Part shown: piece after piece, positions 1-12,650 of the stretch | Numbering within the stretch: position 1 is the first letter of the stretch | Layout: every line of letters starts with the position of its first letter | From: a virus | Taxonomy: Duplodnaviria > Heunggongvirae > Uroviricota > Caudoviricetes | Direction: 5' to 3' (one strand) | Virus record (IMG/VR): IMGVR_UViG_2850756110_000008 | DNA: 12,650 bases | Translations under genes and position numbers: made by a program | The notes under the pieces: generated by a model | Told to the model about the DNA's origin: nothing | Database searches by the model: none | What the model saw: the letters and a program-made list of their open reading frames with translations, nothing else

Positions 1-294
1 GTGGCGCACGTCTTCGGTGAACGCACTCTGGCCACACTGGAGCGTCTTCTGAGCCTGCTGTCGGCCTTTGAGGTCGTGGTATGGATGACGGATGGCTGGC
101 CGCTGTATGAATCACGCCTGAAGGGAAAGCTGCACGTTATCAGCAAGCGTTACACTCAGCGCATTGAGCGACATAATCTGAATCTGAGACAACATCTGGC
201 AAGGCTGGGACGGAAGTCACTGTCGTTCTCAAAATCGGTGGAGCTGCATGACAAGGTCATCGGGCATTATCTGAACATAAAACACTATCAGTAA
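1..294 (+). CDS. insB: IS1 transposase InsB, C-terminal fragment (5' end outside window)
   Basis: Translation ...[70 protein letters not shown] is near-identical to the InsB C-terminus from memory. Confidence 0.9.
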
Positions 295-309
295 GTTGGA
301 GTCATTACC
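1..309 (+). mobile_element. IS1, right-end portion (element continues upstream of window start)
   Basis: ORF 1..294 is the C-terminal 97 aa of IS1 InsB. Its stop codon lies inside a terminal repeat ATCAGTAAGTTGGAGTCATTACC at 287-309 that matches the IS1 inverted repeat as I recall it. Confidence 0.9.
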
Positions 310-321
310 CAAGTAAATAAA

Positions 322-341
322 AACCCGCTCAACAGCGGGTT
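322..341 (-). terminator. Rho-independent terminator (tR'-like) downstream of the Q gene
   Basis: An 8-bp stem (322-329 pairing 334-341) with a 4-nt loop; on the minus strand it is followed by TTTATTTACTT. It lies about 110 nt downstream of the Q stop codon. Confidence 0.6.
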
Positions 342-374
342 CGTGAAAATTATCAACGGCAGACATACAAAGCC

Positions 375-416
375 CATCGTTGAGAAAATCTTATCCATGT
401 TTTTTGAAAAATGCAA
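375..416 (-). promoter_or_regulatory. Late promoter PR'-like with qut-like pause element
   Basis: On the minus strand: TTGCAT (plus 416-411), 17-bp spacer, TAAGAT (plus 393-388), then AACGAT at about +1 to +6. This resembles the -10-like sigma-dependent pause element of lambda PR' as I recall it. Position immediately after Q is as expected. Confidence 0.45.
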
Positions 417-447
417 GCTTCATGTCGCCATCTTCGGCGAAAATCAC

Positions 448-1200
448 TTATCTCGTCACCTTTCTCAATTGTGTTTCAGCATATGCTTCTTCCTGCCAGC
501 ACTTTGTTACTAGTTTATCAATTACGTCTGCATATCCTTTGTACCACTGATAATCAGTCAGGTCTGGAACCAGCTTCTGGACATGACGTCGTGCCAGTGT
601 AGTTGGTAAACGGCTAAACCGGTTTCCATTGCAACGCCCACAAATCTTATAAACAGGCGTGCCATGAAGCCGGGTCCTTTTTTCATCCAGGACAATACCT
701 TTACCCTTACACCCTCTGCACGCTGTGCTGACTTCTCCCTTACCATGACAATGCTGACATAGTTCCTTCACCCACTCTTCCTTGATAACAGATTCCCCGC
801 TTCTGGAGTGTTTCACCACCTCGCGCAATACATTATGAAATCCAGTACCAGCACAATGCTCACAGCGAGCCTTACTTGCCGCAGACCTAGAATAATCAGC
901 AAAGGCAAAATTCACAAGGTAAGGAATGATCTGTAGCCGGGTTTCTTCACTCAATTTATTCAATGTCGGGTTATCCAGTGCCATCGCGTAATTGAGCAGA
1001 CCTTCAATCGCAAACTGAGGATCCTGAACACCAACTTTTGCCAGGAATAAGGCAAACCCAAGCGGTGCTTTCGACTGCACCATCCCCTGCGCAGCCATCA
1101 CATCCGTAATCGTTAAACCACCAGAGCCTGTCGCCGGTGCGTCATCGCTCAGTTTTGGAGATTTCGGGGAGTAATATTTCGGTAAGGCTTCAAGGTTCAT
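448..1200 (-). CDS. Q: Lambdoid antitermination protein Q (82/Qin-type, 250 aa)
   Basis: 250-aa ORF with GGAG 7-8 nt upstream of ATG. Cys/His-rich zinc-binding region (CEHCAGTG...CQHCHGKGE...CRGCKGKG...CGRCNG) and overall resemblance to prophage Q homologues (QuuQ-like). Located at the end of the nin operon, before PR'/tR'. Confidence 0.85.
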   Translation of the reverse strand: MNLEALPKYYSPKSPKLSDDAPATGSGGLTITDVMAAQGMVQSKAPLGFALFLAKVGVQDPQFAIEGLLNYAMALDNPTLNKLSEETRLQIIPYLVNFAFADYSRSAASKARCEHCAGTGFHNVLREVVKHSRSGESVIKEEWVKELCQHCHGKGEVSTACRGCKGKGIVLDEKRTRLHGTPVYKICGRCNGNRFSRLPTTLARRHVQKLVPDLTDYQWYKGYADVIDKLVTKCWQEEAYAETQLRKVTR

Positions 1201-1213
1201 GCTCGTTCTCCAC

Positions 1214-1924
1214 TTACGCCAGTACGCCTATTGCCAGCGCACGATCGATAAAACGAAATATCAGCTCCAGCTGGGAACCATACTTCTCTTCAAATGCCAC
1301 GGTATCCGCATGCAGCTCGTCGTGATGCTTTCTGCACAAAGGCAACACAAAGAGGTCATGCGCTTTTGTACCCATTCCCCCCTGACCGTGGCCTATCAGG
1401 TGGAGGGGATCATCAGCAGGCTTTCCACAACATGCACACGGCTGTGTCTTAACCCAGCGTGTGTACTTTTCATTAACCCAGCGGCGACGTTTTGGGCGTA
1501 ACATAAAAGACTCCGGCGACTCCGGATCCACTTTCAGCGCCAGCACCTTTTTCACCTTATCCTGGATGATGCTGGTGGCAGGAACCGAAGGCACAAGGTC
1601 ACTTTCCCGGGTGACAGACGGCACAACAGGCTTCGGTAATCTCAGTGCCTTACGGGCTGCACTTTCCGGTAAGGCATCCGCCAGGTCATTACGAATCAGC
1701 CACCAGCACAGTTCCGGCATTGTCACAACGTGACTATCATCAAAACCGAGATCCCGACGCACAACAGACAACACCCAGCGGGCACAGTTATCCGTTGCCA
1801 TTGATTCCAGCCGTTCCGTGAACTGATCGCGCAGCTGGTTATCGCAGTGCCAGCACAGACGGATTGCGCCGGCGCGTGTCGCATTGTTGTCATGTTCTCG
1901 CTGTGCCAGTCGGAATGAGGCCAC
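1214..1924 (-). CDS. YdfU/DUF968-like phage protein, C-terminal part (HNH-like Zn motif); apparently frameshifted relative to 1723..2166
   Basis: C-terminus CACCGKPADDPLHLIGHGQGG...LCRKHHDELH is typical of the DUF968 family found just upstream of Q in Qin-like prophages. The ORF opens with GTG at 1924 with no plausible RBS, and its first 39 codons look like genuine protein (CWHCDNQ). Confidence 0.6.
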   Translation of the reverse strand: MASFRLAQREHDNNATRAGAIRLCWHCDNQLRDQFTERLESMATDNCARWVLSVVRRDLGFDDSHVVTMPELCWWLIRNDLADALPESAARKALRLPKPVVPSVTRESDLVPSVPATSIIQDKVKKVLALKVDPESPESFMLRPKRRRWVNEKYTRWVKTQPCACCGKPADDPLHLIGHGQGGMGTKAHDLFVLPLCRKHHDELHADTVAFEEKYGSQLELIFRFIDRALAIGVLA

Positions 1925-2166
1925 TGGCAGCCTTTTTCACGAAGTAACCAGCTTTCAAGACATTCCACGCCACCAGCACGACGGATCACTGCCTCATTGC
2001 GGAACACGGCCCGAACGTCAGGATCATCCGCCAGCGGTTGTGATGCCGCCGGAACAGCACCACTGGCGAAAGATGAATAACGTTCCGGCTCAGGCTCCAG
2101 CAGGACACGCCCCTGCATAAACAGGGGCATCAGCTCTGAACTTGGTCTGAACAATACGATCCCCAT
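1723..2166 (-). CDS. N-terminal fragment of the same DUF968-like gene (different frame)
   Basis: Begins 40 nt after the KilA-N gene stop. The first ~85 residues look protein-like; downstream of about 1920 the frame becomes Cys-rich low-complexity junk, while the other frame opens at 1924. Likely a single gene with a 1-nt indel near 1895-1925. Confidence 0.4.
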   Translation of the reverse strand: MGIVLFRPSSELMPLFMQGRVLLEPEPERYSSFASGAVPAASQPLADDPDVRAVFRNEAVIRRAGGVECLESWLLREKGCQWPHSDWHSENMTTMRHAPAQSVCAGTAITSCAISSRNGWNQWQRITVPAGCCLLCVGISVLMIVTL

Positions 2167-2208
2167 ACGCGGGGCAATTTCAGGGGCAGTAGTGCTCTCA
2201 CGGTCACC

Positions 2209-3006
2209 TCAATGAACGGTATCGAGCAGCTTTAACAGCTCAGGGAATCGGGATTCGAAGAAATGCGGCTGCGTCTCACGCGGATTTGCGGGACTGGTGA
2301 TATTCTTGCCGAACATGCAGCCTTTCGCTGTCAGCGACCAGAATTTTTTGATGTTGTTAATCGCTGTACGGCTGTATCGTTCGCGCTGTTCGACGATCCC
2401 CAGCTTCGCCATCTGGTGATATGCCTGATTAGCCGTAAGGCGGATACCATACTGCTTCAGCAGTGCACTCAGTGACAGCGTGGGGCGGCTTGAGCCATCA
2501 GGCGCGTCAGCAGGAGCATCAATGGCATAGCGCGGTGCCAGATTCGGTAAGCCAACAGCCTCCTGGAGTTTCTGACAGGCTCCAAGCACTGAAGAGTTAG
2601 ACAGGTTTAATTCCCGGCGCATAAAGTCCAGCAGAATCACACCAGCCTGCATCTTGTCAGCAGTCTGTCCGGATAATTTTTCCGGTGCACTGGTTACCAT
2701 GTCGAAAGTACGGATCACCTTCAGATGGAATGACGGGCTGATCCACATTGCATAGGCATACACCAGTTCTTTGCAGACATACGTCCCTTGGTTATTTCCG
2801 CCACGAATAACGTTAACTGGTTCTATATTGACCGAGTTGCAAATCTGCAACTCGCTTATTAAACGTTCAGTTTGCTCATTGCGGAGCCAGAATGCAGGCT
2901 TATGCTTATCCAGAGAACCAGCAGCCCTGTGCAGATCGTTCAGGCTGTAACGCCCATAAGCATCACGACGAACTTCAATTCCATCAATAACCATCAGATT
3001 ATTCAT
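2209..3006 (-). CDS. KilA-N domain protein (Roi/antirepressor-like)
   Basis: N-terminus MVIDGIEVRRDAYGRYSLNDLHRAAG...GTYVCKELVYAYAMWISPSFHLKVI fits the KilA-N DNA-binding domain pattern. Position between rusA and Q is typical of lambdoid nin regions. Confidence 0.75.
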   Translation of the reverse strand: MNNLMVIDGIEVRRDAYGRYSLNDLHRAAGSLDKHKPAFWLRNEQTERLISELQICNSVNIEPVNVIRGGNNQGTYVCKELVYAYAMWISPSFHLKVIRTFDMVTSAPEKLSGQTADKMQAGVILLDFMRRELNLSNSSVLGACQKLQEAVGLPNLAPRYAIDAPADAPDGSSRPTLSLSALLKQYGIRLTANQAYHQMAKLGIVEQRERYSRTAINNIKKFWSLTAKGCMFGKNITSPANPRETQPHFFESRFPELLKLLDTVH

Positions 3007-3025
3007 ACTTCGTTTCTCCTCTTAA

Positions 3026-3415
3026 TCAGGCTGCTGCACCCGCCGGTTTCTCGTACTTACTGATAGTGATCTCGACCTTCCCTTCCGGGATAACCGGTCC
3101 CCACTCCACCAGCATTCTTTTCACCTGACTGTCGTCTTCCCACACACCCGCGTGGGTCAGGGCGTCAAACAGCGCCTTGTTATAGTTGTTCAGATCGCGG
3201 ATCCGGTTATCCGGAGGAAACAACACGATCTCCACTGAAGCAGGTGCCGACGTTGGTTTTGGCAGACGACGTAACTGCTCAACTATTGCTGCACACGCCG
3301 CGCTCTGGAATTTGCGCCCCGCTGCGCTTATCAGGCTCTTACCAGCAAACGCCCCTTTGTTGGGGTGTCGCCAGTACGTGTTCACGCTGGGCGGAAAAGG
3401 CAGTATTAGCTTCAT
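3026..3415 (-). CDS. rusA: Crossover junction endodeoxyribonuclease RusA (Holliday junction resolvase)
   Basis: Motifs LPFPPSVNTYWR and DLNNYNKALFDALTHAGVWEDDSQV match the RusA family. Start overlaps the upstream stop as ATGA. Confidence 0.85.
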   Translation of the reverse strand: MKLILPFPPSVNTYWRHPNKGAFAGKSLISAAGRKFQSAACAAIVEQLRRLPKPTSAPASVEIVLFPPDNRIRDLNNYNKALFDALTHAGVWEDDSQVKRMLVEWGPVIPEGKVEITISKYEKPAGAAA

Positions 3416-3738
3416 ACTTTCAGGCCCCTCTCATGTAACCAGTGGGCTGCACGCAGCTTGGCGTTTTCCTCACCGGCAAGCAGTGAGCGGATAATCCCGA
3501 CCGCCTCGCTGTCGTCGTCCTTCACCGCGGTATGAAGAGTGATACCACGGGCCACACCACGCTTTATCGTGATGACGCCTTTTTTCTCCAGTGCTCTAAG
3601 ATGCTCCACCGCTGCATTCACTGAACGGTATCCCAGCATGGTTGCCACCTCCTGATTGGTTGGCGGGAAGCCACGTTCTTTCTGGTAAGAAATCAGCATA
3701 TCCAGCACCTGCTGCTGGCATTGAGTTAACGTCGTCAT
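3412..3738 (-). CDS. LexA N-terminal DNA-binding-domain-only protein (no peptidase domain)
   Basis: The 108-aa product aligns by eye with the LexA winged-helix domain (LTxxQQxVxDxI......GxPPTxxExAxxLGxRSxNAAxEHLxALxxKGVIxIxxGxxRGIxL). It lacks the Ala-Gly cleavage site and Ser/Lys peptidase domain. ATGA overlaps with both neighbours. Confidence 0.75.
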   Translation of the reverse strand: MTTLTQCQQQVLDMLISYQKERGFPPTNQEVATMLGYRSVNAAVEHLRALEKKGVITIKRGVARGITLHTAVKDDDSEAVGIIRSLLAGEENAKLRAAHWLHERGLKV

Positions 3739-4388
3739 GCCGCCATCTCCCTGACAAGTTTTTCTGCCTGCTGGCGAACTTGCGCCAGAAAGGCCTCACC
3801 ACATGCCTCAAGTTCATCGCGCCCGATGTAGCTGATTGCCGGTCCCTTCCAGGTCTTGTCGAAAACGGCAATAGCACCAGCGAAGAAAGCACCGGTTGGC
3901 ACCTGCTTCTCGTCTTTCGGGATAAACCAGGCAGGCAGTTCAAAACCAATACGCCCGCGAATAAAAGCAATATGATCCGCATCTTCCGGCCACCACACTT
4001 CGCTGGTGGCAGCTTTGATCAGGAAAACATAGCGCCCGCCCTTATCACGCATGGCACTGGCATGTTTCATGATGTAACGCATGCCGGTGATGTATTGCCC
4101 CTCATGCTGACTGGCGCGGCTGTATGGAGGATTTCCAAAGGCAGCACCTTTAAGCTCCGCAAGACGTTCTGACCAGTCATGCGCCAGCGCGTTGTCTTCC
4201 GCCGTGTAATACGCGGCACATTTGGCGTTATCACCGTCAGTAAACAGATCCAGAACAAACGGGCCAAACAGGGTGTTAATTCCCCAGAAAATGTTGTCCG
4301 GTGTGCGCCACTGATCGCCCACTTCCTTCAGTTCATGGGCTGGTTTGTTTCGCAACTCCACCAGCGCCTGGCAATATTTATTACTCAT
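3735..4388 (-). CDS. Phage Dam-type DNA N6-adenine methyltransferase
   Basis: Catalytic NPPY motif (GNPPYSRA) and overall similarity to phage Dam (PF05869-type) proteins. Start taken at the ATG at 4388, which overlaps the upstream stop (TAATG), rather than the ORF-track start at 4421. Confidence 0.8.
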   Translation of the reverse strand: MSNKYCQALVELRNKPAHELKEVGDQWRTPDNIFWGINTLFGPFVLDLFTDGDNAKCAAYYTAEDNALAHDWSERLAELKGAAFGNPPYSRASQHEGQYITGMRYIMKHASAMRDKGGRYVFLIKAATSEVWWPEDADHIAFIRGRIGFELPAWFIPKDEKQVPTGAFFAGAIAVFDKTWKGPAISYIGRDELEACGEAFLAQVRQQAEKLVREMAA

Positions 4389-4882
4389 TAAGCCCCCACG
4401 TAATTCCCTGACAGATACCACTCATCACCCGATACAGCGCGCTTGCTGCTTTTCCGTAAGCACCGCTCACGACGCGCCAGAAAATTGTTTCGTTCTGGCT
4501 GGGAGTGGCTTTCACGGAATGCCGCCATCCACACCGTTGCAGCACGACGGTATAAGCCCCTGGACTCCAGTTCTTCAGCCTGGCGGGTCAGGCACAAAAT
4601 CACCCGGGGACCGTTAGTGCCGACATAGAAATTGCGCACAGGTCTGGTTTCTCGAACTGATTGTGGTCCCGGTTCCTGCGCTCTCTCAGTCAGGCGCGGG
4701 AAATGTCTGCGTGTATCTCCTTCACAACGGTGAGCCACACGCCCACTCTGACGTAACTTGCTTGCAGACTGCAGAACGCGCTGCCGTGAGTAACCTGCAA
4801 AAGCATCCGCAATGTCTCCGGAAGTACACCCCGGATGGGCTTCAATGAATTTCTGAACGTCATTCAAAAGACTCATGCTCAC
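4388..4882 (-). CDS. PerC/Pch-like regulator with N-terminal winged-helix-like region
   Basis: C-terminal half carries AEELESRGLYRRAATVWMAAF, the same motif as the PerC-like ORF at 10141 (AEELESKGLYRRAAARWMEVM). Start is either GTG at 4882 or ATG at 4876. Translationally coupled to neighbours. Confidence 0.6.
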   Translation of the reverse strand: MSMSLLNDVQKFIEAHPGCTSGDIADAFAGYSRQRVLQSASKLRQSGRVAHRCEGDTRRHFPRLTERAQEPGPQSVRETRPVRNFYVGTNGPRVILCLTRQAEELESRGLYRRAATVWMAAFRESHSQPERNNFLARRERCLRKSSKRAVSGDEWYLSGNYVGA

Positions 4883-5445
4883 CCCCTGAATCCTGCCGGG
4901 ATCTGGCTGTAGTCCACGTTGTCGTAACTGGCTTTGAAGTACGGGTCTTCACGTTTTTCTGTGTGCGTGCTGACGGACGGCGATAAGCGCAGGGAAAGCT
5001 CATCCCATTTTTCCCGCAACTTCGACGGGCTGAGCACGTTACGGCACCAGAACGGATCGCGGCTGACGCGGCTGTACATCTCGCAGATTTGTTTGTGAGT
5101 ACGGCCATCCTGTACACACATCAGGCGAATTTCGTTTGCCCAGGCTGTCCAGTTCGGTTCTTTGGGACGAACCACCTCGCCGTCACATTCGGCAGCCTGC
5201 TCGTACAGGGCGATGATTTTTTTCCAGAGCCACTGTGCGCAGGTCAAATCATCCTGCGTCCCCCACTGGCGCTTTTTAGGGCTGAATACAACCGCATCAG
5301 GATGGCGAGTTAAAAAATCCTGTTCAGCCGTCTGCGTGTCCGGTTGCGAAGCGTCCGGACGAGAAGGTTTTTTATCTGACGGATCATGTTTTGATTTTAC
5401 TGACGGATCCCCGCCAGATTCTGACGGGTGAAAACCCGCTTTTTT
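4879..5445 (-). CDS. Phage early/nin-region protein, 5'-truncated by IS66-family insertion (function unknown)
   Basis: The ORF runs open up to and into the IS66 terminal repeat (the track's TTG start at 5460 is inside IS sequence). Translation is protein-like (…CAQWLWKKIIALYEQAAECDGEVV…). First gene of the coupled operon. Confidence 0.5.
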   Translation of the reverse strand, partial: KKAGFHPSESGGDPSVKSKHDPSDKKPSRPDASQPDTQTAEQDFLTRHPDAVVFSPKKRQWGTQDDLTCAQWLWKKIIALYEQAAECDGEVVRPKEPNWTAWANEIRLMCVQDGRTHKQICEMYSRVSRDPFWCRNVLSPSKLREKWDELSLRLSPSVSTHTEKREDPYFKASYDNVDYSQIPAGFRG

Positions 5446-5482
5446 GTAAGCGTGCAGCAAGAACCGTATTGACGGGGATGTG

Positions 5483-7021
5483 TTATTCAGTCGGCAGTGC
5501 TACGCGCCAGGGGAGCAGTTCGCCGACCCGGTTTATCGGCCAGTCGGCTATGACGTCAAGGACATAGCGGAGGTAGCTTTCTGGCTCCACTCCGTTCAGT
5601 TTGCACGTCCCGATCAGGCTGTACAGCAGCGCTCCCCGCTCTCCTCCATGATCCGAACCGAAGAACAGGTAGTTTTTGCGGCCCAGACTGACCATCCGCA
5701 ACGCATTTTCAGCGATGTTATTGTCCGCCTCAGCCCAGCCATCATCTGCATAGTACGTCAGCGCCGGCCACTGGTTCAGGGCGTATGCGAACGCTTTCGC
5801 CAGTTCTGAGTGTCGCGACAGGGTTTTCATCTTTTCACGCAGCCAGCTTTCCAGGGATTTCAGCAGCGGTTTCGTTTTCAACTGACGTTCGGCAAGGCGC
5901 TGCTCCGCCGTCATTCCCCTTATCTCTGCCTCGATGGCGTACAGTTCGCCGATCCGTTTCAGCGCTTCCTCCGTCAGGGCTGACGGGGTGCGAACGTGCA
6001 CATCGTGGATTTTACGGCGGGCGTGAGCCCAACAGGCGGCTTCCGTTATCCGGCCATCCCGGTACAGCTCGTTGAACCCGGCGTATGCATCCGCCTGCAG
6101 TACACCACTGAACCCCGCAAGATGGGTCTGCGGATGGATGCCTTTTCTGTCCGGGCTGTAAGCGAACCACACCGCCGGCGCCAGCGTTGACCCGGCGTTA
6201 CGGTCGTCACGAACGTAGGTCCATAACCGCCCGGTCTTCGTTTTCTTATTGCCTGGCAACAGCACCGGGACAGGCGTGTCATCAGCATGGAGCTTACCGT
6301 CAGTCAGCACATAGTCCTGAAGCGCTTCTTCCAGCGGTGACAGTAGCCGGCAGCATGCATCCACCCAGCCCGACAGCAGTGAACGACTCAGCTCCACGCC
6401 CTGGCGGCCGTACATTTCAGACTGGCGGTACAGCGGGGTGTGCTCTGCATACTTTGAGATCAGCACGCGGGCCAGCAGCCCCGGTCCTGCGATACCCCGC
6501 TCGATGGGCCGTGAAGGCGCGGGGGCCTGCACGATGGCATCGCACTGAGTACAGGCATGCTTTTCACGTACAGTCCGGATAACCCGGAAGACGCTGCGCA
6601 TCAACTCCAGCTGTTCGGCGGCATCCTCACCCGGATAGCTCAGTGAGCCTCCACATTCCGGGCAGCATGACGCTGCCGGCAGCAGCCGTTTTTCATCGCG
6701 GGGGAGTGATTCGGGGAACGGTTTGCGGGTGCGGGTTTGACGCAGCGGGCGCTGCACGGCCGGGTCGTCAACCCGACCGGTAAGGGTATCACTTTCTTTC
6801 TGAAGTGCCTTCAGGTCAGCTTCCATCTGTGCGATACGACGGGAGACTTTTTCGGAGCGGCTGCCGAAGTTCATCCGGCGCAGCTTATCCAGCTGTGCCT
6901 GCAGATGGTCTATTTCGCGTTCACGCTCGTTCAGCTTTTCCAGCAGGGCACGGTTCAGCGCCTCCTGTTCGGCAAGGAGACGTTTCAGTGCATTGATATC
7001 GTCAGGAAGTGAGCTGCTCAT
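5483..7021 (-). CDS. IS66-family transposase (TnpC/orf3)
   Basis: 512 aa with N-terminal coiled-coil/leucine zipper, CxxC...CxxC zinc finger (CPECGG...CTQC) and conserved LHADDTPV and TGRLWTY motifs. Confidence 0.9.
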
Positions 7022-7069
7022 ACCGGGTATATTACCAGGCTCATTCAGCGTCGACCAGGATAAAGAGGC

Positions 7070-7417
7070 TTACAACATAGTCAGGGACGTAAGCAGTCTT
7101 TTAGGCTGCCGCCAGTCGATACCTTCAAGGAGCATCGCCAGCTGTGCCGGTGTGAGGAACACTTTGCCATCCCGGGCTGACGGCCAGGCGAAGCGGCCGC
7201 GCTCCAGCCGTTTGGTCAGCAGACACAGTCCATCGCCGGTAGACCAGAGGAGCTTTACCTGACTGCCATTACGCCCACGGAAGATAAAAACGTGACCTGA
7301 CATCGGATCGTCTTTCAGCGTCGTCTGCACCTTTGCCGCCAGGCCGTTGAAGCCATTTCTCATATCGGTGATACCGGCAACCAGCCAAATTTTGGTCCCG
7401 GAAGGTAACGGGATCAT
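7070..7417 (-). CDS. IS66 Orf2 (TnpB) accessory protein
   Basis: 115-aa protein (…LVAGITDMRNGFNGLAAKVQ…LWSTGDGLCLLTKRLERGRF…) typical of the IS66 orf2 family. ATGA overlap with orf1. Confidence 0.85.
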   Translation of the reverse strand: MIPLPSGTKIWLVAGITDMRNGFNGLAAKVQTTLKDDPMSGHVFIFRGRNGSQVKLLWSTGDGLCLLTKRLERGRFAWPSARDGKVFLTPAQLAMLLEGIDWRQPKRLLTSLTML

Positions 7418-7794
7418 CGCTTCAGTTCCTGTATCAGCAGAGTCAGGAGCTTTTCGCTGACATTGCCATTGAAGCGGAGCGTCCCGTGCCGGAACGTTAC
7501 CTCACAGCTGATACTGAGGGTTTCCGGATCCTCTGCGAGCGATTCTGGCTGTTCGGCAGCTGCATCGAGAGTCACAGGAAGTAGCTGGGGGCTCTCTGAA
7601 GAAGGTAATAGCAGCTTTCCCTCGCGCCATTGTTGTCGCCATTTGAACAACAGATTGGCGTTAATGCCATTTTCAAGAGCAAGTTTTGAGATGGATATCC
7701 CGGGTTCACAGGAGGCAGCAACGAGCTGCTGTTTAAATTCGGGAGGATAATTAGGGCAGCCTTTTCGCCTGCCGGGATTCACATTTTTCTGCAT
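7414..7794 (-). CDS. IS66 Orf1 (TnpA) accessory protein
   Basis: Helix-turn-helix-like small protein in the first position of the IS66 operon. ATG at 7794 (MQKNVNPGRRK…) preferred; the ORF-track start at 7815 is a GTG. Confidence 0.8.
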   Translation of the reverse strand: MQKNVNPGRRKGCPNYPPEFKQQLVAASCEPGISISKLALENGINANLLFKWRQQWREGKLLLPSSESPQLLPVTLDAAAEQPESLAEDPETLSISCEVTFRHGTLRFNGNVSEKLLTLLIQELKR

Positions 7795-7946
7795 ATCTGA
7801 CACTTTGGTTCCCACTACTTATTTGGTGGACACCACTTTGTCTAATTCGTCAGATTCTGACCAGACGGTTCAGGCTGTACGCTGATATGACTTTCCGTGT
7901 CAAACCGGAATCTCTAATTTTGACGATTTTCTTTTTAGGTTTAATT

Positions 7947-8129
7947 CCCTGAGGGCGACGTAGCAGTAAATCCGACGGTGAATCACGCTGATATTCGCGG
8001 GTTGGATACCGCATTACAGAGGTCCGTCATATGAGCCTGCCACTTTCTTACGTCGCGAATCAGCTTTGTTCCGCCGTCGCCAAGCGCTAACGTGGGTTAC
8101 TCTTGTACCGGGCTACGTCGCCTTCAGGG
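7947..8129. ncRNA. Candidate IS110-family bridge-RNA-like structured noncoding element (strand undetermined)
   Basis: An 18-bp inverted repeat (7947-7964 CCCTGAGGGCGACGTAGC; 8112-8129 GCTACGTCGCCTTCAGGG, one G/U-compatible mismatch) encloses 147 nt. Inside, ACGCTGATAT (7985-7994) is identical to the 10 nt spanning the IS66-terminus/IS110-end junction (7879-7888). Confidence 0.3.
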
Positions 8130-8148
8130 AACTGGTTATTCTCATTTT

Positions 8149-9276
8149 TTATTTGTGACATTGTGGTTGTTGTGCGACAGACATTGCTATTCGGCCCATA
8201 TCCCAGATAAAACCCGCCAGCTCACGTGCAACAGCAACAATTGTAATATTGACATTCTTTCCTTTGGCCTGAAGTTTTCGATACCTCTTACAGAGCCTGA
8301 GTTGAGCATCCCATGCTCTGTCAATGACGGGGCGGGGTAAATTTTCCTGCCTTTTTTGTATTGCCGGACTGATGCGTGCCGGATGACGGTAACTCCACGC
8401 TGCCTCGACCAATAGCTTTCTGGCATAGCTGTTTCCGGCTTTGGTAATGCTGCCCTGATGTCTGCTTCCACCCGATGAATATTCTGATGGCGTGATACCA
8501 AACCATGACATCAGTTGTCGTGGATGTTCAAAACGGGTCAGATCACCCAGTTCAGAAATTAATCCAACCGCAGTAATAAACTGAATCCCTCGCATGGCTT
8601 GCAGCGCCTCTACTACCGGATACAGCCTCCATTCGGTAACGGCCTCCTTCAGGGCGGATTCCAGCCGTTCACATTGTGCCTGCCGGTCTTCTATTGTACG
8701 ACGGTGTTCGTCAAAAGCTAATTGTCGCCAGGGACTTTCGAATGAGTATTTGCTGAGCCAGCGTCGGTGTGCAGGGCCCCAATCTGCTCGCCCGACATAA
8801 TGGACCCCATGAACCAGAAGAAACGATTTCAGACGTTGCCTTGCATGCCGTAAATCATCGCGGGCAGATGCCCATGCCCGGGCCAAATCCCGGAATGCCT
8901 CATCTTCAATGCCGGGTACGTAGACAGCAGAAAGATCTCCTGCACGCAGTGAACGCACAAGTCTGATGGCATCACGGCGATCGGTTTTAACCCGCTCCCC
9001 CGGTTTTTTCGGGATAAGTGAGGGGGCGCAGACCATGCAGTCAAAACCGGATTTCACCAGCCGACGATAAAGTCCATAACCACAGGGCCCCGCTTCATAA
9101 ACGATACTGACCTGCGATGACTTTGACCTGAGACGTTTACAAAGATTCTGAATATCAGTAGGTGATGTGCCAATTTTACCCATCAGTTCAACAGGTTCTG
9201 AATTGATAGCATAAGCGACAGTAATCGATTCTTTGTGAACATCTAACCCGACGTACAATGTGTTATTGTTGTTCAT
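8149..9276 (-). CDS. IS110-family transposase / DEDD recombinase
   Basis: 375 aa from the ATG at 9276, with GGAGG 7 nt upstream. N-terminal RuvC-like DEDD motifs (YVGLDVHK, IVYEAG, KTDRRDA) and C-terminal Tnp domain with conserved Ser (GITPSEYSSGGS). The ORF track extends the start to 9324, which lacks an RBS. Confidence 0.85.
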   Translation of the reverse strand: MNNNNTLYVGLDVHKESITVAYAINSEPVELMGKIGTSPTDIQNLCKRLRSKSSQVSIVYEAGPCGYGLYRRLVKSGFDCMVCAPSLIPKKPGERVKTDRRDAIRLVRSLRAGDLSAVYVPGIEDEAFRDLARAWASARDDLRHARQRLKSFLLVHGVHYVGRADWGPAHRRWLSKYSFESPWRQLAFDEHRRTIEDRQAQCERLESALKEAVTEWRLYPVVEALQAMRGIQFITAVGLISELGDLTRFEHPRQLMSWFGITPSEYSSGGSRHQGSITKAGNSYARKLLVEAAWSYRHPARISPAIQKRQENLPRPVIDRAWDAQLRLCKRYRKLQAKGKNVNITIVAVARELAGFIWDMGRIAMSVAQQPQCHK

Positions 9277-9426
9277 GCTGGCCTCCGTGGTGGAAATACC
9301 GGGGGGTAGCAACAGCTCACCCATGCGGCTCTGACAACGATGTTAACCCGCGTTAAATATCCCACGTTGGCCAGCATCTGTCTCACGGAAAGTCATACTG
9401 CCTTACTTTCCAATGGGCACTCATGT

Positions 9427-9882
9427 TTATACGCTGACCTTACAATCAATCACCGCTTTTAAATTTTCAGCATTGCTTCCCTGACGCTTCCACGCGCTGT
9501 AAATATCTTTATCCCACGCTTTACCAGCTTTTGTTTGATAGCCTGCTTCATTGATCCGTTCAGCTATCACACGCCCATTATCAAATCCCTGTTGGATGGT
9601 ATCGGCAATGATCTTTATAACTGCCGTTTCGTTATATGGCTTTGGTGGGATGTTCGGCTTTCCGGCAATAAGCGACGCAGCGGCTTTTTCCATGCGCTCC
9701 ACCAGCCCAAGCATTCGTGAATCAATAGACTTTTCCGGCTGTCCCAGCTTCATGCGAATCGCATCAACAAGCCAGGAGGTTTTATCCCCTCCAGAAGCGA
9801 GAACAGACCGATTAAACTCATCCTGCAATTCAGATGGGATGCGGAACGCGATCAGATTAGATTTGCTCATTGCAAAGACCAT
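9427..9882 (-). CDS. Hypothetical protein, possibly ribbon-helix-helix (Arc-like) DNA-binding at the N-terminus
   Basis: 151-aa protein-like ORF divergent from the PerC-like gene. N-terminus NLIAFRIPSELQDEFNRSVLASGGDKTSWLVDAIRMKL resembles RHH folds. A palindromic operator-like site lies 20-50 bp upstream. Stop is 30 bp from the IS110 end, so the C-terminus may be altered. Confidence 0.5.
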   Translation of the reverse strand: MVFAMSKSNLIAFRIPSELQDEFNRSVLASGGDKTSWLVDAIRMKLGQPEKSIDSRMLGLVERMEKAAASLIAGKPNIPPKPYNETAVIKIIADTIQQGFDNGRVIAERINEAGYQTKAGKAWDKDIYSAWKRQGSNAENLKAVIDCKVSV

Positions 9883-9899
9883 ATCAGTGAGTAATATCC

Positions 9900-9931
9900 A
9901 TACAGTATACCACTGTATAACACTGTTATAC
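9900..9931. promoter_or_regulatory. Overlapping palindromic operator-like sites upstream of the 151-aa gene
   Basis: ATACAGT-N5-ACTGTAT (9900-9918) and a perfect 17-bp palindrome GTATAACA-C-TGTTATAC (9915-9931). A minus-strand TATACT -10-like hexamer overlaps. Confidence 0.4.
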
Positions 9932-9983
9932 GCTCAAATATCAGCCAGAAAATAACGGACCAATCACAAAGCTATCGCTGTGT

Positions 9984-10104
9984 TGTTGGTTCAGAGCTGG
10001 GCTGTGTTGGTTCAAAATGAGTTGATGTTGGTTCAATATTTTAGAAAAACATAATAAAAACAACGATCTTTACAAATTGAACCAACTGAACCAACTGAAC
10101 CAAC
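9984..10104. repeat. Iteron-like array: six copies of GTTGGTTCA (3 direct at 21-bp spacing, 42-bp AT-rich spacer, 3 inverted in 9-bp tandem)
   Basis: TGTTGGTTCA at 9984-9993, 10005-10014 and 10026-10035. AT-rich 10036-10077. TGAACCAAC at 10078-10086, 10087-10095 and 10096-10104. Confidence 0.7.
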
Positions 10105-10135
10105 ACCTTTTTGCTTATCTATATAATCTGAGAGG
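10096..10135 (+). promoter_or_regulatory. Putative promoter and RBS of the PerC-like gene, overlapped by the inverted repeats
   Basis: Perfect TATAAT at 10122-10127 and GAGAGG at 10130-10135 before the ATG at 10141. The -35 region coincides with the TGAACCAAC repeats. Confidence 0.3.
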
Positions 10136-10140
10136 CAGAA

Positions 10141-10422
10141 ATGATAAGGGACAGGAAAGCTGAAGAGCTGGAGTCAAAAGGGCTATACCGGAGAGCTGCC
10201 GCACGATGGATGGAAGTCATGCTGTTATGCACCGAGGACGATGATCGGGAATGGATAAAGCGCCGCCGTGAAACGTGTCTGGAGAACGTGAAGCGCCCGC
10301 CCGTGAAGGTTGAGGAATTTGGCGACCTGCATAAAGCTGTTACCGAAACGCAACACCGCATGGGGATAGCGCAACCGAACGGTAACGCCTTCCGGTTAAA
10401 TGGCGGCAAGAGGCAAAGGTAG
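10141..10422 (+). CDS. PerC family transcriptional activator-like protein
   Basis: 93 aa with the N-terminal motif RDRKAEELESKGLYRRAAARWMEV characteristic of PerC/Pch proteins as I recall them. Good RBS. Confidence 0.7.
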   Translation: MIRDRKAEELESKGLYRRAAARWMEVMLLCTEDDDREWIKRRRETCLENVKRPPVKVEEFGDLHKAVTETQHRMGIAQPNGNAFRLNGGKRQR

Positions 10423-10718
10423 ACCACCAGAGGGAAATCATCCTCTGGCTGGCGGTTTCTGGTATTTCGGGACAAGTACGCGCGCGCGTAGCACCCAATC
10501 GGTGAGGAAATAGCGGCGACCTGAATGGTCAAAATCACAACGCAGCTATCCCCGTAAGCAGCGCTTAACGGAATAGCAGTAACCTGAATCCAGTGGGGAG
10601 GGGTAGTCAAATCTCTACAGCCCTGACTATCCGGGACTGCCCGCCCCATCGTTTTTTTATACCCGCGAAAAATGAAATTTAATCCGGGCGTGTTTCATCC
10701 TTCCAGAGGGTATGACGT

Positions 10719-10904
10719 ATGACACCACGCGAAATAGCCTTATTGACCATCGCCAAACTTGAGCACGGAGGCCACCAGCTTACACAGGCAGATCAACGGG
10801 AGATAGAACGATCAGTTAATGCCGATATAGCCCGGCGCGACAGGTTCCGCGAAATGATGCGAGCACCTGCCTACCAGTGGAAGAAGCCAGCGCCGCGCAG
10901 GTAG
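10719..10904 (+). CDS. Hypothetical small protein (61 aa)
   Basis: GAGGG 8 nt upstream of ATG; charged helical-looking product; no family recognised. Confidence 0.4.
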   Translation: MTPREIALLTIAKLEHGGHQLTQADQREIERSVNADIARRDRFREMMRAPAYQWKKPAPRR

Positions 10905-11024
10905 ATATGGGATTATTCCACATGTACCTTATGCGTATTAAGCAAATTTCCTTTATTCACCTTTACAGAATTGTGAGTACGTCAGTATCGTTATCCTTCC
11001 GATTCGCATTTATTCAGGATTTGC

Positions 11025-11567
11025 ATGTACCAGCTAAAGATAACCATCCGAGACAGCAAACCACCTATATGGCGGCGTGTGCTGGTTCCAGAGCAAATCC
11101 CCTTTAGTAAACTTCATGCCGTGATCCAGTTAGCTTTTGGCTGGAATGACGAACACCTGTATATGTTCGAGAAAGGGCGTAAAGGTGATCCAGGTAGCGA
11201 GTATCGCGTATGGGGTGAGGATGAAAGCATGGGTAACGCGGCAATCACGCCACTATGGGCGGCGCTCCAGAATGAGGGTGACAAGCTGGTTTACACGTAT
11301 GACTTTGGCGACTGGTGGGATTGCGTCATTGTGCTGGAGAAGCAAACACACGATACGAGTAATCAGCCCATTAGCTGCCTGCGTGGGAAAGGCACCACCC
11401 CGGCGGAAAACTCAGGCGGCTTGCATGGTTACAATGAATTGCTATTACAGGCCAGAGAGTCTGATAATCCTGAGCAGGCCGAGATCCACAATTTCCTGAT
11501 GCTGGATATTGAACGCCGGGTTTACGACCTGAGCCGCATCAACGACAGATTGCAGGCTATTAACTGA
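11025..11567 (+). CDS. Plasmid pRiA4b ORF-3-like family protein
   Basis: N-terminus MYQLKITIRDSKPPIWRRVLVPEQIPFSKLHAVIQLAFGWNDEHLYMF matches the conserved start of PF07929-type proteins as I recall them. Confidence 0.65.
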   Translation: MYQLKITIRDSKPPIWRRVLVPEQIPFSKLHAVIQLAFGWNDEHLYMFEKGRKGDPGSEYRVWGEDESMGNAAITPLWAALQNEGDKLVYTYDFGDWWDCVIVLEKQTHDTSNQPISCLRGKGTTPAENSGGLHGYNELLLQARESDNPEQAEIHNFLMLDIERRVYDLSRINDRLQAIN

Positions 11568-11919
11568 CCCGCATGTATTCACCTGATATTGCGTTGTCAG
11601 CGCCGCCAGTATCGCGCATAACAGCGCACTGACCGGGTAAACCGTAGCGCACGACCGTTGCGTTAGTATCACCGCCGCGCCGTATCTGGCGCGATTCATA
11701 CACTGTCACCCGCTCAAGCAGTCCACCAGCAACCATGCTTTCCAGTGTGCGCCGGGTTGATTCGAGCTGGTGACGCTTATCGAACGACACCATGCCATGA
11801 AGCAGGTAGGCCACACCCGACACATCGAACGGCGGCGCACCAATCTCACCAGTCACCCATTCGAGGTTATCCGGTTCAAAGTAGCTAAGTATCTCTTTTT
11901 TGCGACTGGTCATTCTCAT
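11560..11919 (-). CDS. Hypothetical protein (119 aa), convergent with and overlapping the previous gene by 8 bp
   Basis: Protein-like composition; AGGA 11 nt upstream of ATG at 11919; no family recognised. Confidence 0.45.
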   Translation of the reverse strand: MRMTSRKKEILSYFEPDNLEWVTGEIGAPPFDVSGVAYLLHGMVSFDKRHQLESTRRTLESMVAGGLLERVTVYESRQIRRGGDTNATVVRYGLPGQCAVMRDTGGADNAISGEYMRVS

Positions 11920-12146
11920 GGCTGGCTGATTCCTTATTGTGGGATAGCACTATCATACAATAAGTGGGTTAAAGGGAGAGCGTTACCGCCTGATATGCTG
12001 TATGAATAACAACCAAATTTCAGGGGCGGAAAAAGATATGGGGGTACTTTTGGGGGTATCTATAAAAAATGAACAATAAAAAAGGCAACAAAAACAAAGC
12101 TTATCGCCTATGTGTATTGTTCCTATTATCCATTTAAATCAATAAG

Positions 12147-12650
12147 TTACACATCATTAGTACGTTCCTTATTTCTTGACTGGGACAAATTTGGGACCGA
12201 TGGGTTCAGAATCGAGTCTATTTGCCGTGCGTGTTCGGTAAGGTGATTAGGTGCGAGGTGAGCATATCGACGAACCATTTCGATAGACTCCCAGCCTCCC
12301 ATTTCCTGTAACACTGATAACGGGACTCCGGCTTGAACCAGCCAACTTGCCCAGGTGTGTCTCAAGTCGTGAAATCTGAAATCATCAATACCTGCTCGTC
12401 TCAGCGCCGCTTTCCAGGCTGTGTTTGCGTCATACCGCATCTTCCTGACTGTTGGCGCTTTCGTTCCGTCTGGTTTGGTACAGCTTTCCTTATACACAAA
12501 TACCCAACGGTGATGATTCCCGATTTGTTTTTTCAATACGCGACATGCAGTATCATTCAGCGCAACGCCAATTGCGCGGTTTGATTTACTCTCTTCCGGG
12601 TTTATCCATGCCACCCGGTGAGGTGTACTGGCAATAGCGGACACTACCAT
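12147..12650 (-). CDS. Tyrosine-type phage integrase, C-terminal catalytic domain (5' end beyond window)
   Basis: Conserved HDLRHTWAS (His-x-x-Arg) and catalytic Tyr context EMVRRYAHL. The ORF is open to the window edge. Confidence 0.9.

Follow-up and report, generated by a model that had tools for sequence, protein, structure and literature searches.

The window considered here is a stretch of 12,650 nucleotides assigned to the Caudoviricetes (IMG/VR virus record IMGVR_UViG_2850756110_000008), in which two open reading frames (ORFs), designated ORF A and ORF B, encode proteins of the PerC family. Judged by profile matches and alignments, both are PerC-family regulators within the PerC/ANR superfamily of small three-helix regulators, and both are already catalogued. 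ORF A is, by residue identity and gene order, an orthologue of YfdN of Escherichia coli K-12, a protein type of SfV/e14/CPS-53-like lambdoid phages. ORF B is, by identity to a database entry, the PerC-like protein of an EcCIMP1-type phage satellite, that is, a phage-inducible chromosomal island (PICI). Both genes are known and annotated, the former as K-12 YfdN and the latter as a published, experimentally tested satellite gene. The best explanation of the locus as a whole, which we regard as likely, is that two catalogued PerC/ANR members belonging to different decayed elements have been brought together by an insertion sequence (IS) and would act through protein contacts. Comparison of the flanks indicates that a lambdoid prophage remnant and an EcCIMP1-like island, represented by its far end, have been fused by an IS66-family element, and that the pairing of the two genes is without functional meaning.

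Two catalogued members of the PerC family

The Pfam PerC profile (PF06069; profile length 90, gathering threshold 22.6 bits) recognizes both products above its threshold. ORF B, with 93 amino acids, scores 104.5 bits (E 3.7e-30) over profile positions 1-85 and represents the whole-profile, single-domain form of approximately 90-105 amino acids. In ORF A, a protein of 164 amino acids, the match is confined to profile positions 5-58 (38.1 bits, E 1.9e-09), equivalent to residues 100-153 of the protein; ORF A has no counterpart of the profile's last third and carries a 95-residue extension at the N-terminus. The two proteins are also related directly: BLASTP aligns them at 43% identity over 56 amino acids (E 4e-11), and an hhalign comparison of profiles built from their respective homologues gives 98.9% probability (E 3.3e-17) over a three-helix core of 55 residues. 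RefSeq names both genes 'PerC family transcriptional regulator'. An earlier inspection of the bare DNA, hereafter the sequence-only reading, had placed two PerC-like genes at 4388-4882 and 10141-10422, without stating that the first lies on the minus strand, and had named the Pfam search as a check; both genes exist and both clear the threshold. Its extra N-terminal domain in ORF A is equally real, as residues 1-95 fall outside the PerC match. The motif that it had given as GLYRRAA-x-W is common to the two proteins, but the spacing is x2 instead of x1 (GLYRRAATVW in ORF A, GLYRRAAARW in ORF B). In an alignment of PerC, PchA, PchD, PchE, YfdN and both ORFs, the G, R, R, A and W of this motif are invariant.

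Over all 164 residues ORF A is 96% identical to K-12 YfdN (b2357, in the cryptic prophage CPS-53), a protein of the same length and without established function. The gene has been termed 'the K12 unique PerC homologue' and was deleted from a ler reporter strain as a precaution (PMC5931665). The RefSeq label of ORF A-type genes sometimes carries the gene name yfdN, and the order of genes agrees as well: in K-12 an O-like fragment (yfdO) lies upstream of yfdN and a Dam fragment (yfdM) downstream, the same O/YfdN/Dam succession found in the window. What distinguishes ORF A is its location in a different, IS-truncated prophage remnant and seven amino-acid changes (11 synonymous and 7 non-synonymous codon differences). 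These changes are confined to residue 58, within the predicted wing loop, to the predicted linker and its borders (three of the seven inside residues 65-89, another at residue 91) and to the C-terminal tail, a distribution that is consistent with constraint on both folded parts. ORF A matches phrog_1324 over its full length; the PHROG collection also contains the N-terminal half alone (phrog_23071) and the C-terminal half alone (phrog_2608), which indicates that the two halves are separable modules.

The gene is tightly packed in its operon. The GTG start of ORF A at 4882 overlaps the stop codon of the O-like gene (GTGA), and its own stop overlaps the ATG of the Dam gene (TAATG). A second candidate start, an ATG at 4876 preceded by an AGGGGG Shine-Dalgarno sequence, would yield 162 amino acids; many homologues begin at the equivalent position (MSL...), and this ATG is possibly the true start. 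To one side of ORF A lies the truncated O-like gene (phrog_391), and to the other lie Dam, LexA-like, RusA, KilA-N, DUF968 and Q genes. An intact relative in E. coli ECONIH4 displays the order cI-like repressor, Cro-like, YmfL, DUF4222, HTH/O-like, PerC-like, Dam, LexA-like, RusA, KilA-N, DUF968 and Q, with an intact O-like homologue of 942 bp. The sequence-only reading had described ORF A as embedded in a nin operon, and the match with the early-right (nin-type) operon of ECONIH4 agrees with this description. DNA resembling ORF A, with at least 80% of the gene covered, occurs in 2547 of the 5426 complete E. coli genomes searched (∼47%), and the overall number of genomes with similar genes lies between 2547 and 2674. 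Protein matches were obtained in 56 phage records, of which 51 cover almost the whole length; Shigella phage SfV, Stx2c-converting phages, mEp460-type phages and Salmonella ST64B are among the 56.

An AlphaFold2 model of ORF A, derived from 14 homologues, has a mean predicted local distance difference test score (pLDDT) of 72.5 and a predicted template modelling score (pTM) of 0.38. It divides the protein into an N-terminal domain, a linker and the three-helix core (Table 1). The N-terminal domain is probably a winged helix according to this model: Foldseek superposes ∼60 residues at a root-mean-square deviation of 1.6-3 Å on winged helices of the ArsR/SmtB, MarR/MepR, BlaI and Fur/PerR types. 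The corresponding E values are 0.003-0.2, with none at or below 0.001. A Pfam search with the N-terminal domain alone returned no family at E values up to 10, and a sequence search of the Protein Data Bank (PDB) with ORF A returned no match. Exhaustive HMMER comparison of the domain with 1.84 billion representative sequences produced only 55 hits; these were nearly all from the same family or fragments of it, so that the domain is confined to YfdN-type proteins.

ORF B is identical to WP_000617443.1 of E. coli MP1, with 100% protein identity and 0 nucleotide differences. In MP1 this is the sole PerC-family coding sequence annotated between proA/tRNA-Thr and yagU, the interval to which the island EcCIMP1 was mapped (Pick, Stadel and Raivio, ISME J 2025, PMC11773190). 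The PerC-family product of that island, EcCIMP1_025, silences LEE1-lux, a reporter for the enterocyte effacement locus (LEE), in Citrobacter rodentium in a dose-dependent fashion; perC of enteropathogenic E. coli (EPEC) activated the reporter in the same assay, and EcCIMP1_025 was proposed to be ANR-like (PMC11773190). The relationship extends beyond the gene: positions 10005-12130 of the window are 99% identical to the far end of EcCIMP1 in MP1, and comprise the same iterons from 10005 on and the same downstream 61-residue ORF, PRiA4_ORF3 and 119-residue ORF. To the left of 10005, in contrast, the window is unlike MP1, and only the far end of the island is retained, the integrase, AlpA, Ash, primase and ejection-protein genes being absent. 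A structural model of ORF B shows three confident helices (residues 5-13, 16-29 and 33-50) and a weaker fourth (61-73), without a recognizable DNA-binding fold; a PDB sequence search with ORF B gave noise only. Proteins of this type are nearly absent from phage records (two weak hits) and widespread in Enterobacteriaceae chromosomes and plasmids. ORF B-like genes are present in 334 of the 5426 complete E. coli genomes at 80% coverage or more, and in 630 if any match is counted; isolates with related sequence include pig enterotoxigenic E. coli, O139:H1 and strains from wastewater, panda and deer.

Among characterized proteins the closest relative of ORF B is PchE of enterohaemorrhagic E. coli (EHEC; group 3, located in Sakai Sp7, which is equivalent to EcCIEDL933), with 47% identity in alignment, compared with 39% for PchD, 37% for EPEC PerC and 34% for PchA. 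PchE is likewise placed after primase, iterons and SSB in a satellite-type element; it differs in its iteron, ATAACCCGCA, and in the capsid genes of its element. PchE influences curli and flagella, with LEE little affected, and the effect of PchD on LEE is also small (PMC6265319). With EPEC PerC (BfpW) and EHEC PchA/B/C (group 1), the window proteins share the Pfam family and the invariant core residues A, L, E, G, R, R, A, W, R and C. A close relationship to group 1 was not found, given the identities of ORF B and the alignment of ORF A over the core only; ORF A has just the first ∼55 residues of the PerC domain together with the added predicted winged helix. PerC and PchABC activate LEE1 (PMC5931665), whereas the protein identical to ORF B represses it (PMC11773190). 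The possibility that ORF A is PchD or PchE was rejected, as these are single-domain proteins of ∼90 amino acids.

The ANR family (Aar, Rnr, Cnr; NCBIfam NF033650) offers a second point of comparison. The curated cut-off is 32 bits; ORF B falls just short of it with 31.1 bits (E 1.6e-07), and ORF A gives a weak 23.4 bits (E 3.9e-05). The likeness comprises the three-helix core predicted in both ORFs, published ANR signature residues that fit this core and the repressing phenotype of the twin of ORF B. ANR proteins are smaller than 10 kDa and have three conserved helices; ORF B exceeds this size with its extra C-terminal helix and tail, and ORF A has 164 residues. No AraC-type partner gene is located nearby, and the list of ORFs contains no AraC-family gene within the window. 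PADLOC returned no defence-system match for ORF A, ORF B or the island genes, and Rfam no RNA family in the window.

A junction between two remnants

Homology to E. coli prophages extends over positions 310-5446 of the window and homology to an EcCIMP1-type island over 9406-12305. The interval is filled by two insertion sequences, one nested in the other (Table 1). The outer IS66-family element is flanked by GCTTTTTT and TTTCCAAT and shows no 8-bp target duplication, and the remainder of the O gene is not found beyond it. The lack of both indicates that the boundary of this element is a recombination junction and not a simple insertion. The two regulators that the sequence-only reading had presented as one locus lie on unrelated element remnants joined by an IS, and there is no paired system.

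The same arrangement, minus the IS110-family element, was recovered through the exact ORF A protein in five assemblies with 99.94-99.98% identity. In these (loci L004-L008) window position 7883 joins straight to 9402, and the absence of the IS110-family element from five near-identical assemblies points to a recent, strain-specific insertion. One of the five, CP026832, is Shigella dysenteriae 14 ATCC 49346 (PMC10132075). None of the complete E. coli genomes contains 80% or more of the window in one place, and no genome among the 5426 spans either IS junction. The exact 40-nt junction between the O fragment and the IS66-family element was not found in one-genome-per-species contigs.

Both partners of the junction are heavily reduced. 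The prophage remnant, 5 kb in length, comprises the genes from Q to the O fragment and borders on IS1, on the other side of which lie gcl, allR and allA (L004 12590-16495; window 1-310); its lysis and structural genes are all gone. The DUF968/HNH-like gene at 1214-2166 on the minus strand consists of a 236-residue frame and an overlapping 147-residue frame, corresponds to a single 329-residue gene in ECONIH4 and is likely a frameshift pseudogene. A complete EcCIMP1-type PICI would comprise an integrase, an AlpA-type regulator and a primase or replication gene with the origin behind it, in about 10-25 kb bounded by attachment sites. Of such an element the window has the far-end segment 9407-12130 only, with no primase, AlpA or island integrase.

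Table 1. Positions of the features discussed, in window coordinates
Feature	Position	Strand	Basis and remarks
ORF A	4388-4882	minus	164 aa; YfdN-type PerC-family protein; ORF list, Pfam, phrog_1324
ORF A residues 2-62, predicted winged helix-turn-helix	4697-4879	minus	Helices 2-15, 21-27 and 33-46, beta hairpin 49-62; pLDDT about 73-86
ORF A residues 65-89, predicted disordered linker	4616-4690	minus	pLDDT <50
ORF A residues 92-151, predicted three-helix PerC/ANR core	4430-4609	minus	Helices 92-107, 111-124 and 128-151; pLDDT 83-93; Pfam PerC 100-153
ORF B	10141-10422	plus	93 aa; PerC-family protein, EcCIMP1 PerC-like WP_000617443.1
O-like replication initiator, C-terminal remnant	4879-5445	minus	phrog_391 positions 119-298 of 298 only; cut by IS66-family element
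Phage Dam methyltransferase	3735-4388	minus	Pfam Dam PF05869, 155.7 bits; RefSeq annotation of ECONIH4 prophage; directly downstream of ORF A
ISEc22-like IS66-family element (tnpA, tnpB, tnpC)	5446-7883, last 5 bases 9402-9406	minus	RefSeq ISEc22 family; end GTAAGCG at 5446
ISSso6-like IS110-family element	7884-9401	minus	RefSeq ISSso6 family; inside right terminal repeat of IS66-family element
Hypothetical protein gene, 151 aa	9427-9882	minus	ORF list; no Pfam match; called hypothetical in islands of E. coli; array lies between it and the divergent ORF B
Iteron array	9984-10105		Six TGTTGGTTCA copies (at most 1 mismatch)
TATAAT hexamer, candidate -10 for ORF B	10122-10127	plus	Perfect match, read directly; just past last iteron
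Island far-end genes	10719-11919		61-aa ORF (plus); PRiA4_ORF3 11025-11567 (plus), Pfam 146.2 bits; 119-aa ORF 11560-11919 (minus)
Tyrosine integrase C-terminal fragment, 167 aa, neighbouring island	12147-12650	minus	Phage_integrase product beside IS3-family transposase in L004; integrase pseudogenes at this position in E. coli

Iterons and the neighbourhood of ORF B

The iteron-like array that had been noticed beside ORF B is real. Its six copies of TGTTGGTTCA compare with 1.0 expected by chance, and six were reached in none of 200 shuffles. Three direct copies at 21-bp spacing are followed by a spacer of 83% A+T (10036-10077) and by three inverted copies at 9-bp spacing. The origins of Gram-negative PICIs consist of two iteron sets around an A+T-rich region, 3' of a primase or replication gene (PMC6092414). 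The window reproduces the three-plus-three arrangement around an A+T-rich spacer and differs in that no primase gene adjoins its array. Judged by this layout, the array most likely represents the replication origin of a satellite or else a duplicate of such an origin.

Comparison with other islands supplies the context. In the islands of Salmonella, L023, E. coli L003 and MP1 the primase gene is followed at once by the TGTTGGTTCA iteron, which is also found in identical form in E. coli SWHEFF_68. Other islands with the same origin layout contain different iterons, AGTAGGGAT, TGTTGTCTCA and, in Sakai Sp7, ATAACCCGCA (loci L020, L021, L023, L024-L027 and L015 compared), and this variation suggests that initiator and origin specificity change together. 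An interpretation of the array as integrase arm sites was rejected, as the iteron always follows primase genes and changes between islands with the primase-bearing element. Around homologues of ORF B (82%, Enterobacter by source name; 63%, Salmonella) and around Sakai pchE, a conserved order is observed: Ash, small ORFs, primase (of the Zn-ribbon/Toprim/DUF927 type or D5), a gap of 200-400 bp, SSB or ProQ, and the PerC-like gene. The gap between primase and SSB or ProQ always contains two opposed iteron sets. In the window ORF B occupies the corresponding slot, straight after the array. In the Enterobacter-type loci L021 and L023 the series continues with the 61-residue ORF, PRiA4_ORF3 and the 119-residue ORF as in the window, and these three genes come after the PerC gene in E. 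coli MP1, P15-25 and SWHEFF_68 too.

Two further aspects of these elements were observed. EcCIMP1-type islands contain two TGTTGGTTCA arrays several kb apart, one after the primase gene and the other before the PerC-like gene, with ejection-protein cargo between them (window 9984-10105; L003 5171-5262 and 12579-12701; L028 ∼20296-20403 and 11836 downward). The two arrays could be a duplicated origin bracketing inserted cargo. In Sakai Sp7 (L015 9712-25172) pchE resides in a 15-kb element together with integrase, primase, iterons, SSB, capsid, protease, portal and terminase, which by its gene content is the layout of a capsid-forming satellite.

The sequence-only reading had placed ORF B under a TATAAT promoter. 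The hexamer is perfect. Before the SSB gene of L023, CTATATAA and a GAGAGGC Shine-Dalgarno sequence continue the right-hand iterons, and near-identical sequence is found before ORF B; this similarity provides some comparative support for 10122-10127 as a real -10 element. On the other hand, the hexamer ends 13 nt before the ATG of ORF B, a distance so short that the GAGAGG Shine-Dalgarno sequence would be cut off, and a two-hexamer promoter scan of 9800-10750 found no promoter, the best -35 candidate matching 3 of 6 positions. A terminator scan around ORF B called nothing; a 7-bp inverted repeat, CCAGAGG...CCTCTGG, lies directly after the ORF B stop (10423-10470), without a clear T-run. On the far side of the array, the N-terminus of the 151-residue hypothetical protein (IAFRIPSELQDEFNRSV...) resembles a ribbon-helix-helix by eye, and the MP1 sequence differs here. 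Going by this resemblance, the product could bind the neighbouring repeats.

A proposed mechanism and competing explanations

In the explanation that we prefer, the remnants would have been joined by the IS66-family element in a Shigella-type chromosome. By analogy with characterized relatives, the three-helix core would serve as a protein-interaction module, directed at nucleoid silencers (H-NS, StpA, Hha) and/or AraC-type activators, and would not be a classical DNA-binding activator. Pch relieves silencing by H-NS, StpA and Hha at LEE1 (PMC4764244). Besides modulating H-NS, ANR proteins bind AraC-type activators, such as VirF, at the linker; Aar gives a detectable two-hybrid signal with 10 of the 16 AraC-type regulators tested, Shigella VirF among them (PMC4983702, PMC5570504). 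ORF B would be a negative modulator. ORF A would couple the core to DNA through its predicted winged helix and would normally be produced from the early-right transcript on prophage induction; here the IS would have deprived it of the operon promoter, and it may be silent. Should Shigella make either protein, H-NS or VirF might speculatively be put forward as plausible partners.

A number of points weigh against this explanation. The mechanism is proposed for both proteins by analogy only, the ANR scores of both ORFs lie under the NCBI cut-off, and Foldseek comparison of the ORF B model with the PDB gave nothing significant, the best matches being MIT/TPR-like bundles with E >1. The winged helix is called on a medium-confidence model and Foldseek E values of 0.003-0.2, without sequence-profile support. 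The presumed equivalence of ORF B and EcCIMP1_025 depends on the single annotated PerC-family coding sequence between proA and yagU in MP1, the assignment to Shigella is drawn from near-identical loci without the IS110 insertion, and no canonical promoter was found for ORF B.

The sequence-only reading had seen in both proteins PerC/Pch-type activators of a ler-type virulence locus elsewhere in the host genome, a view that now appears very improbable. The arrangement occurs in Shigella dysenteriae, a genus not known to carry LEE. YfdN-like genes are present in 2547 of the complete E. coli genomes, K-12 also encoding YfdN, whereas ler and its promoter are present in 697. The ORF A-like, ORF B-like and ler counts are totals per gene and not genome-by-genome co-occurrences; the first and last imply that at least 1850 genomes carry ORF A-like genes without ler. 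Membership of the family does stand, since both ORFs match the PerC profile, and Pch group 1 and EPEC PerC activate LEE1 (PMC5931665; PMC4764244); some PICI-encoded PerC variants are also said to activate LEE (PMC6092414). Activation of a virulence locus is not supported: the protein identical to ORF B silences LEE1 (PMC11773190), ORF B is nearest to PchE and only 34-37% identical to PchA and PerC, PchD and PchE having little effect on LEE (PMC6265319), and ORF A, the K-12 YfdN type, is devoid of the last third of the PerC profile.

A different proposition, somewhat unlikely in our estimation, is that both genes are functionless relics here, intact only through recent decay and neither expressed nor used. 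The state of the locus speaks for it: the prophage is cut to 5 kb with a truncated O gene and no early promoter region, the DUF968 gene has a frameshift when compared with ECONIH4, of the integrase a fragment is left, the window lacks the island integrase, primase and other genes, the locus is filled with IS1, IS66-family and IS110-family elements, and the scan found no canonical promoter for ORF B. However, neither reading frame is broken, the upstream region native to ORF B, with iterons and TATAAT, is retained and is identical to that of the mobile EcCIMP1, and ORF A could be driven by transcription running outward from the IS66-family element. Decay of this kind concerns current activity and not identity, and is compatible with the preferred explanation. 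It is unlikely, too, that ORF B forms part of a satellite replication or life-cycle module instead of regulating host genes, co-transcribed with SSB or ProQ from an origin-embedded promoter and acting on the helper phage or on the satellite itself. The order primase, iterons, SSB/ProQ and PerC is kept in islands with four different iteron sequences, ORF B and the L023 SSB gene have in common the stretch that starts with the last iterons, includes CTATATAA and ends at the GAGAGGC Shine-Dalgarno sequence, and the predicted -35 position of ORF B overlaps the last iteron. Yet presence of the PerC-family regulator is variable among EcCIMP1-like elements (PMC11773190), which argues against an essential role; the sole reported phenotype concerns LEE1, and no experiment ties PerC-like genes to satellite replication or transfer.

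A broader conjecture, which we hold to be similarly doubtful, is that the PerC/ANR core is a standard part of mobile-element circuits and not a virulence regulator, the satellite form being expressed from a promoter within the right-hand origin iterons and the YfdN form being tethered to DNA by its winged helix. If this were true, occupancy of the origin by the initiator would control, in primase-type satellites, an origin-linked operon of SSB or ProQ and the PerC-like gene, and what is seen at LEE would be a by-product of general contacts with H-NS-type silencers or with regulators of the helper phage.

As a discovery the finding matters little, and its lessons are interpretive. A match to the PerC family does not imply activation of LEE: most genomes with ORF A-like genes have no ler, and ORF B's nearest tested relative acts in the opposite sense. 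Seemingly paired regulators in IS-rich, Shigella-type genomes can be scars of rearrangement. Two modest leads emerge for the biology of the family, namely the position of PerC-like genes next to the origin, which is strictly conserved in primase-type satellites, and YfdN itself, an uncharacterized, predicted winged-helix/PerC fusion present in about half of the complete E. coli genomes.

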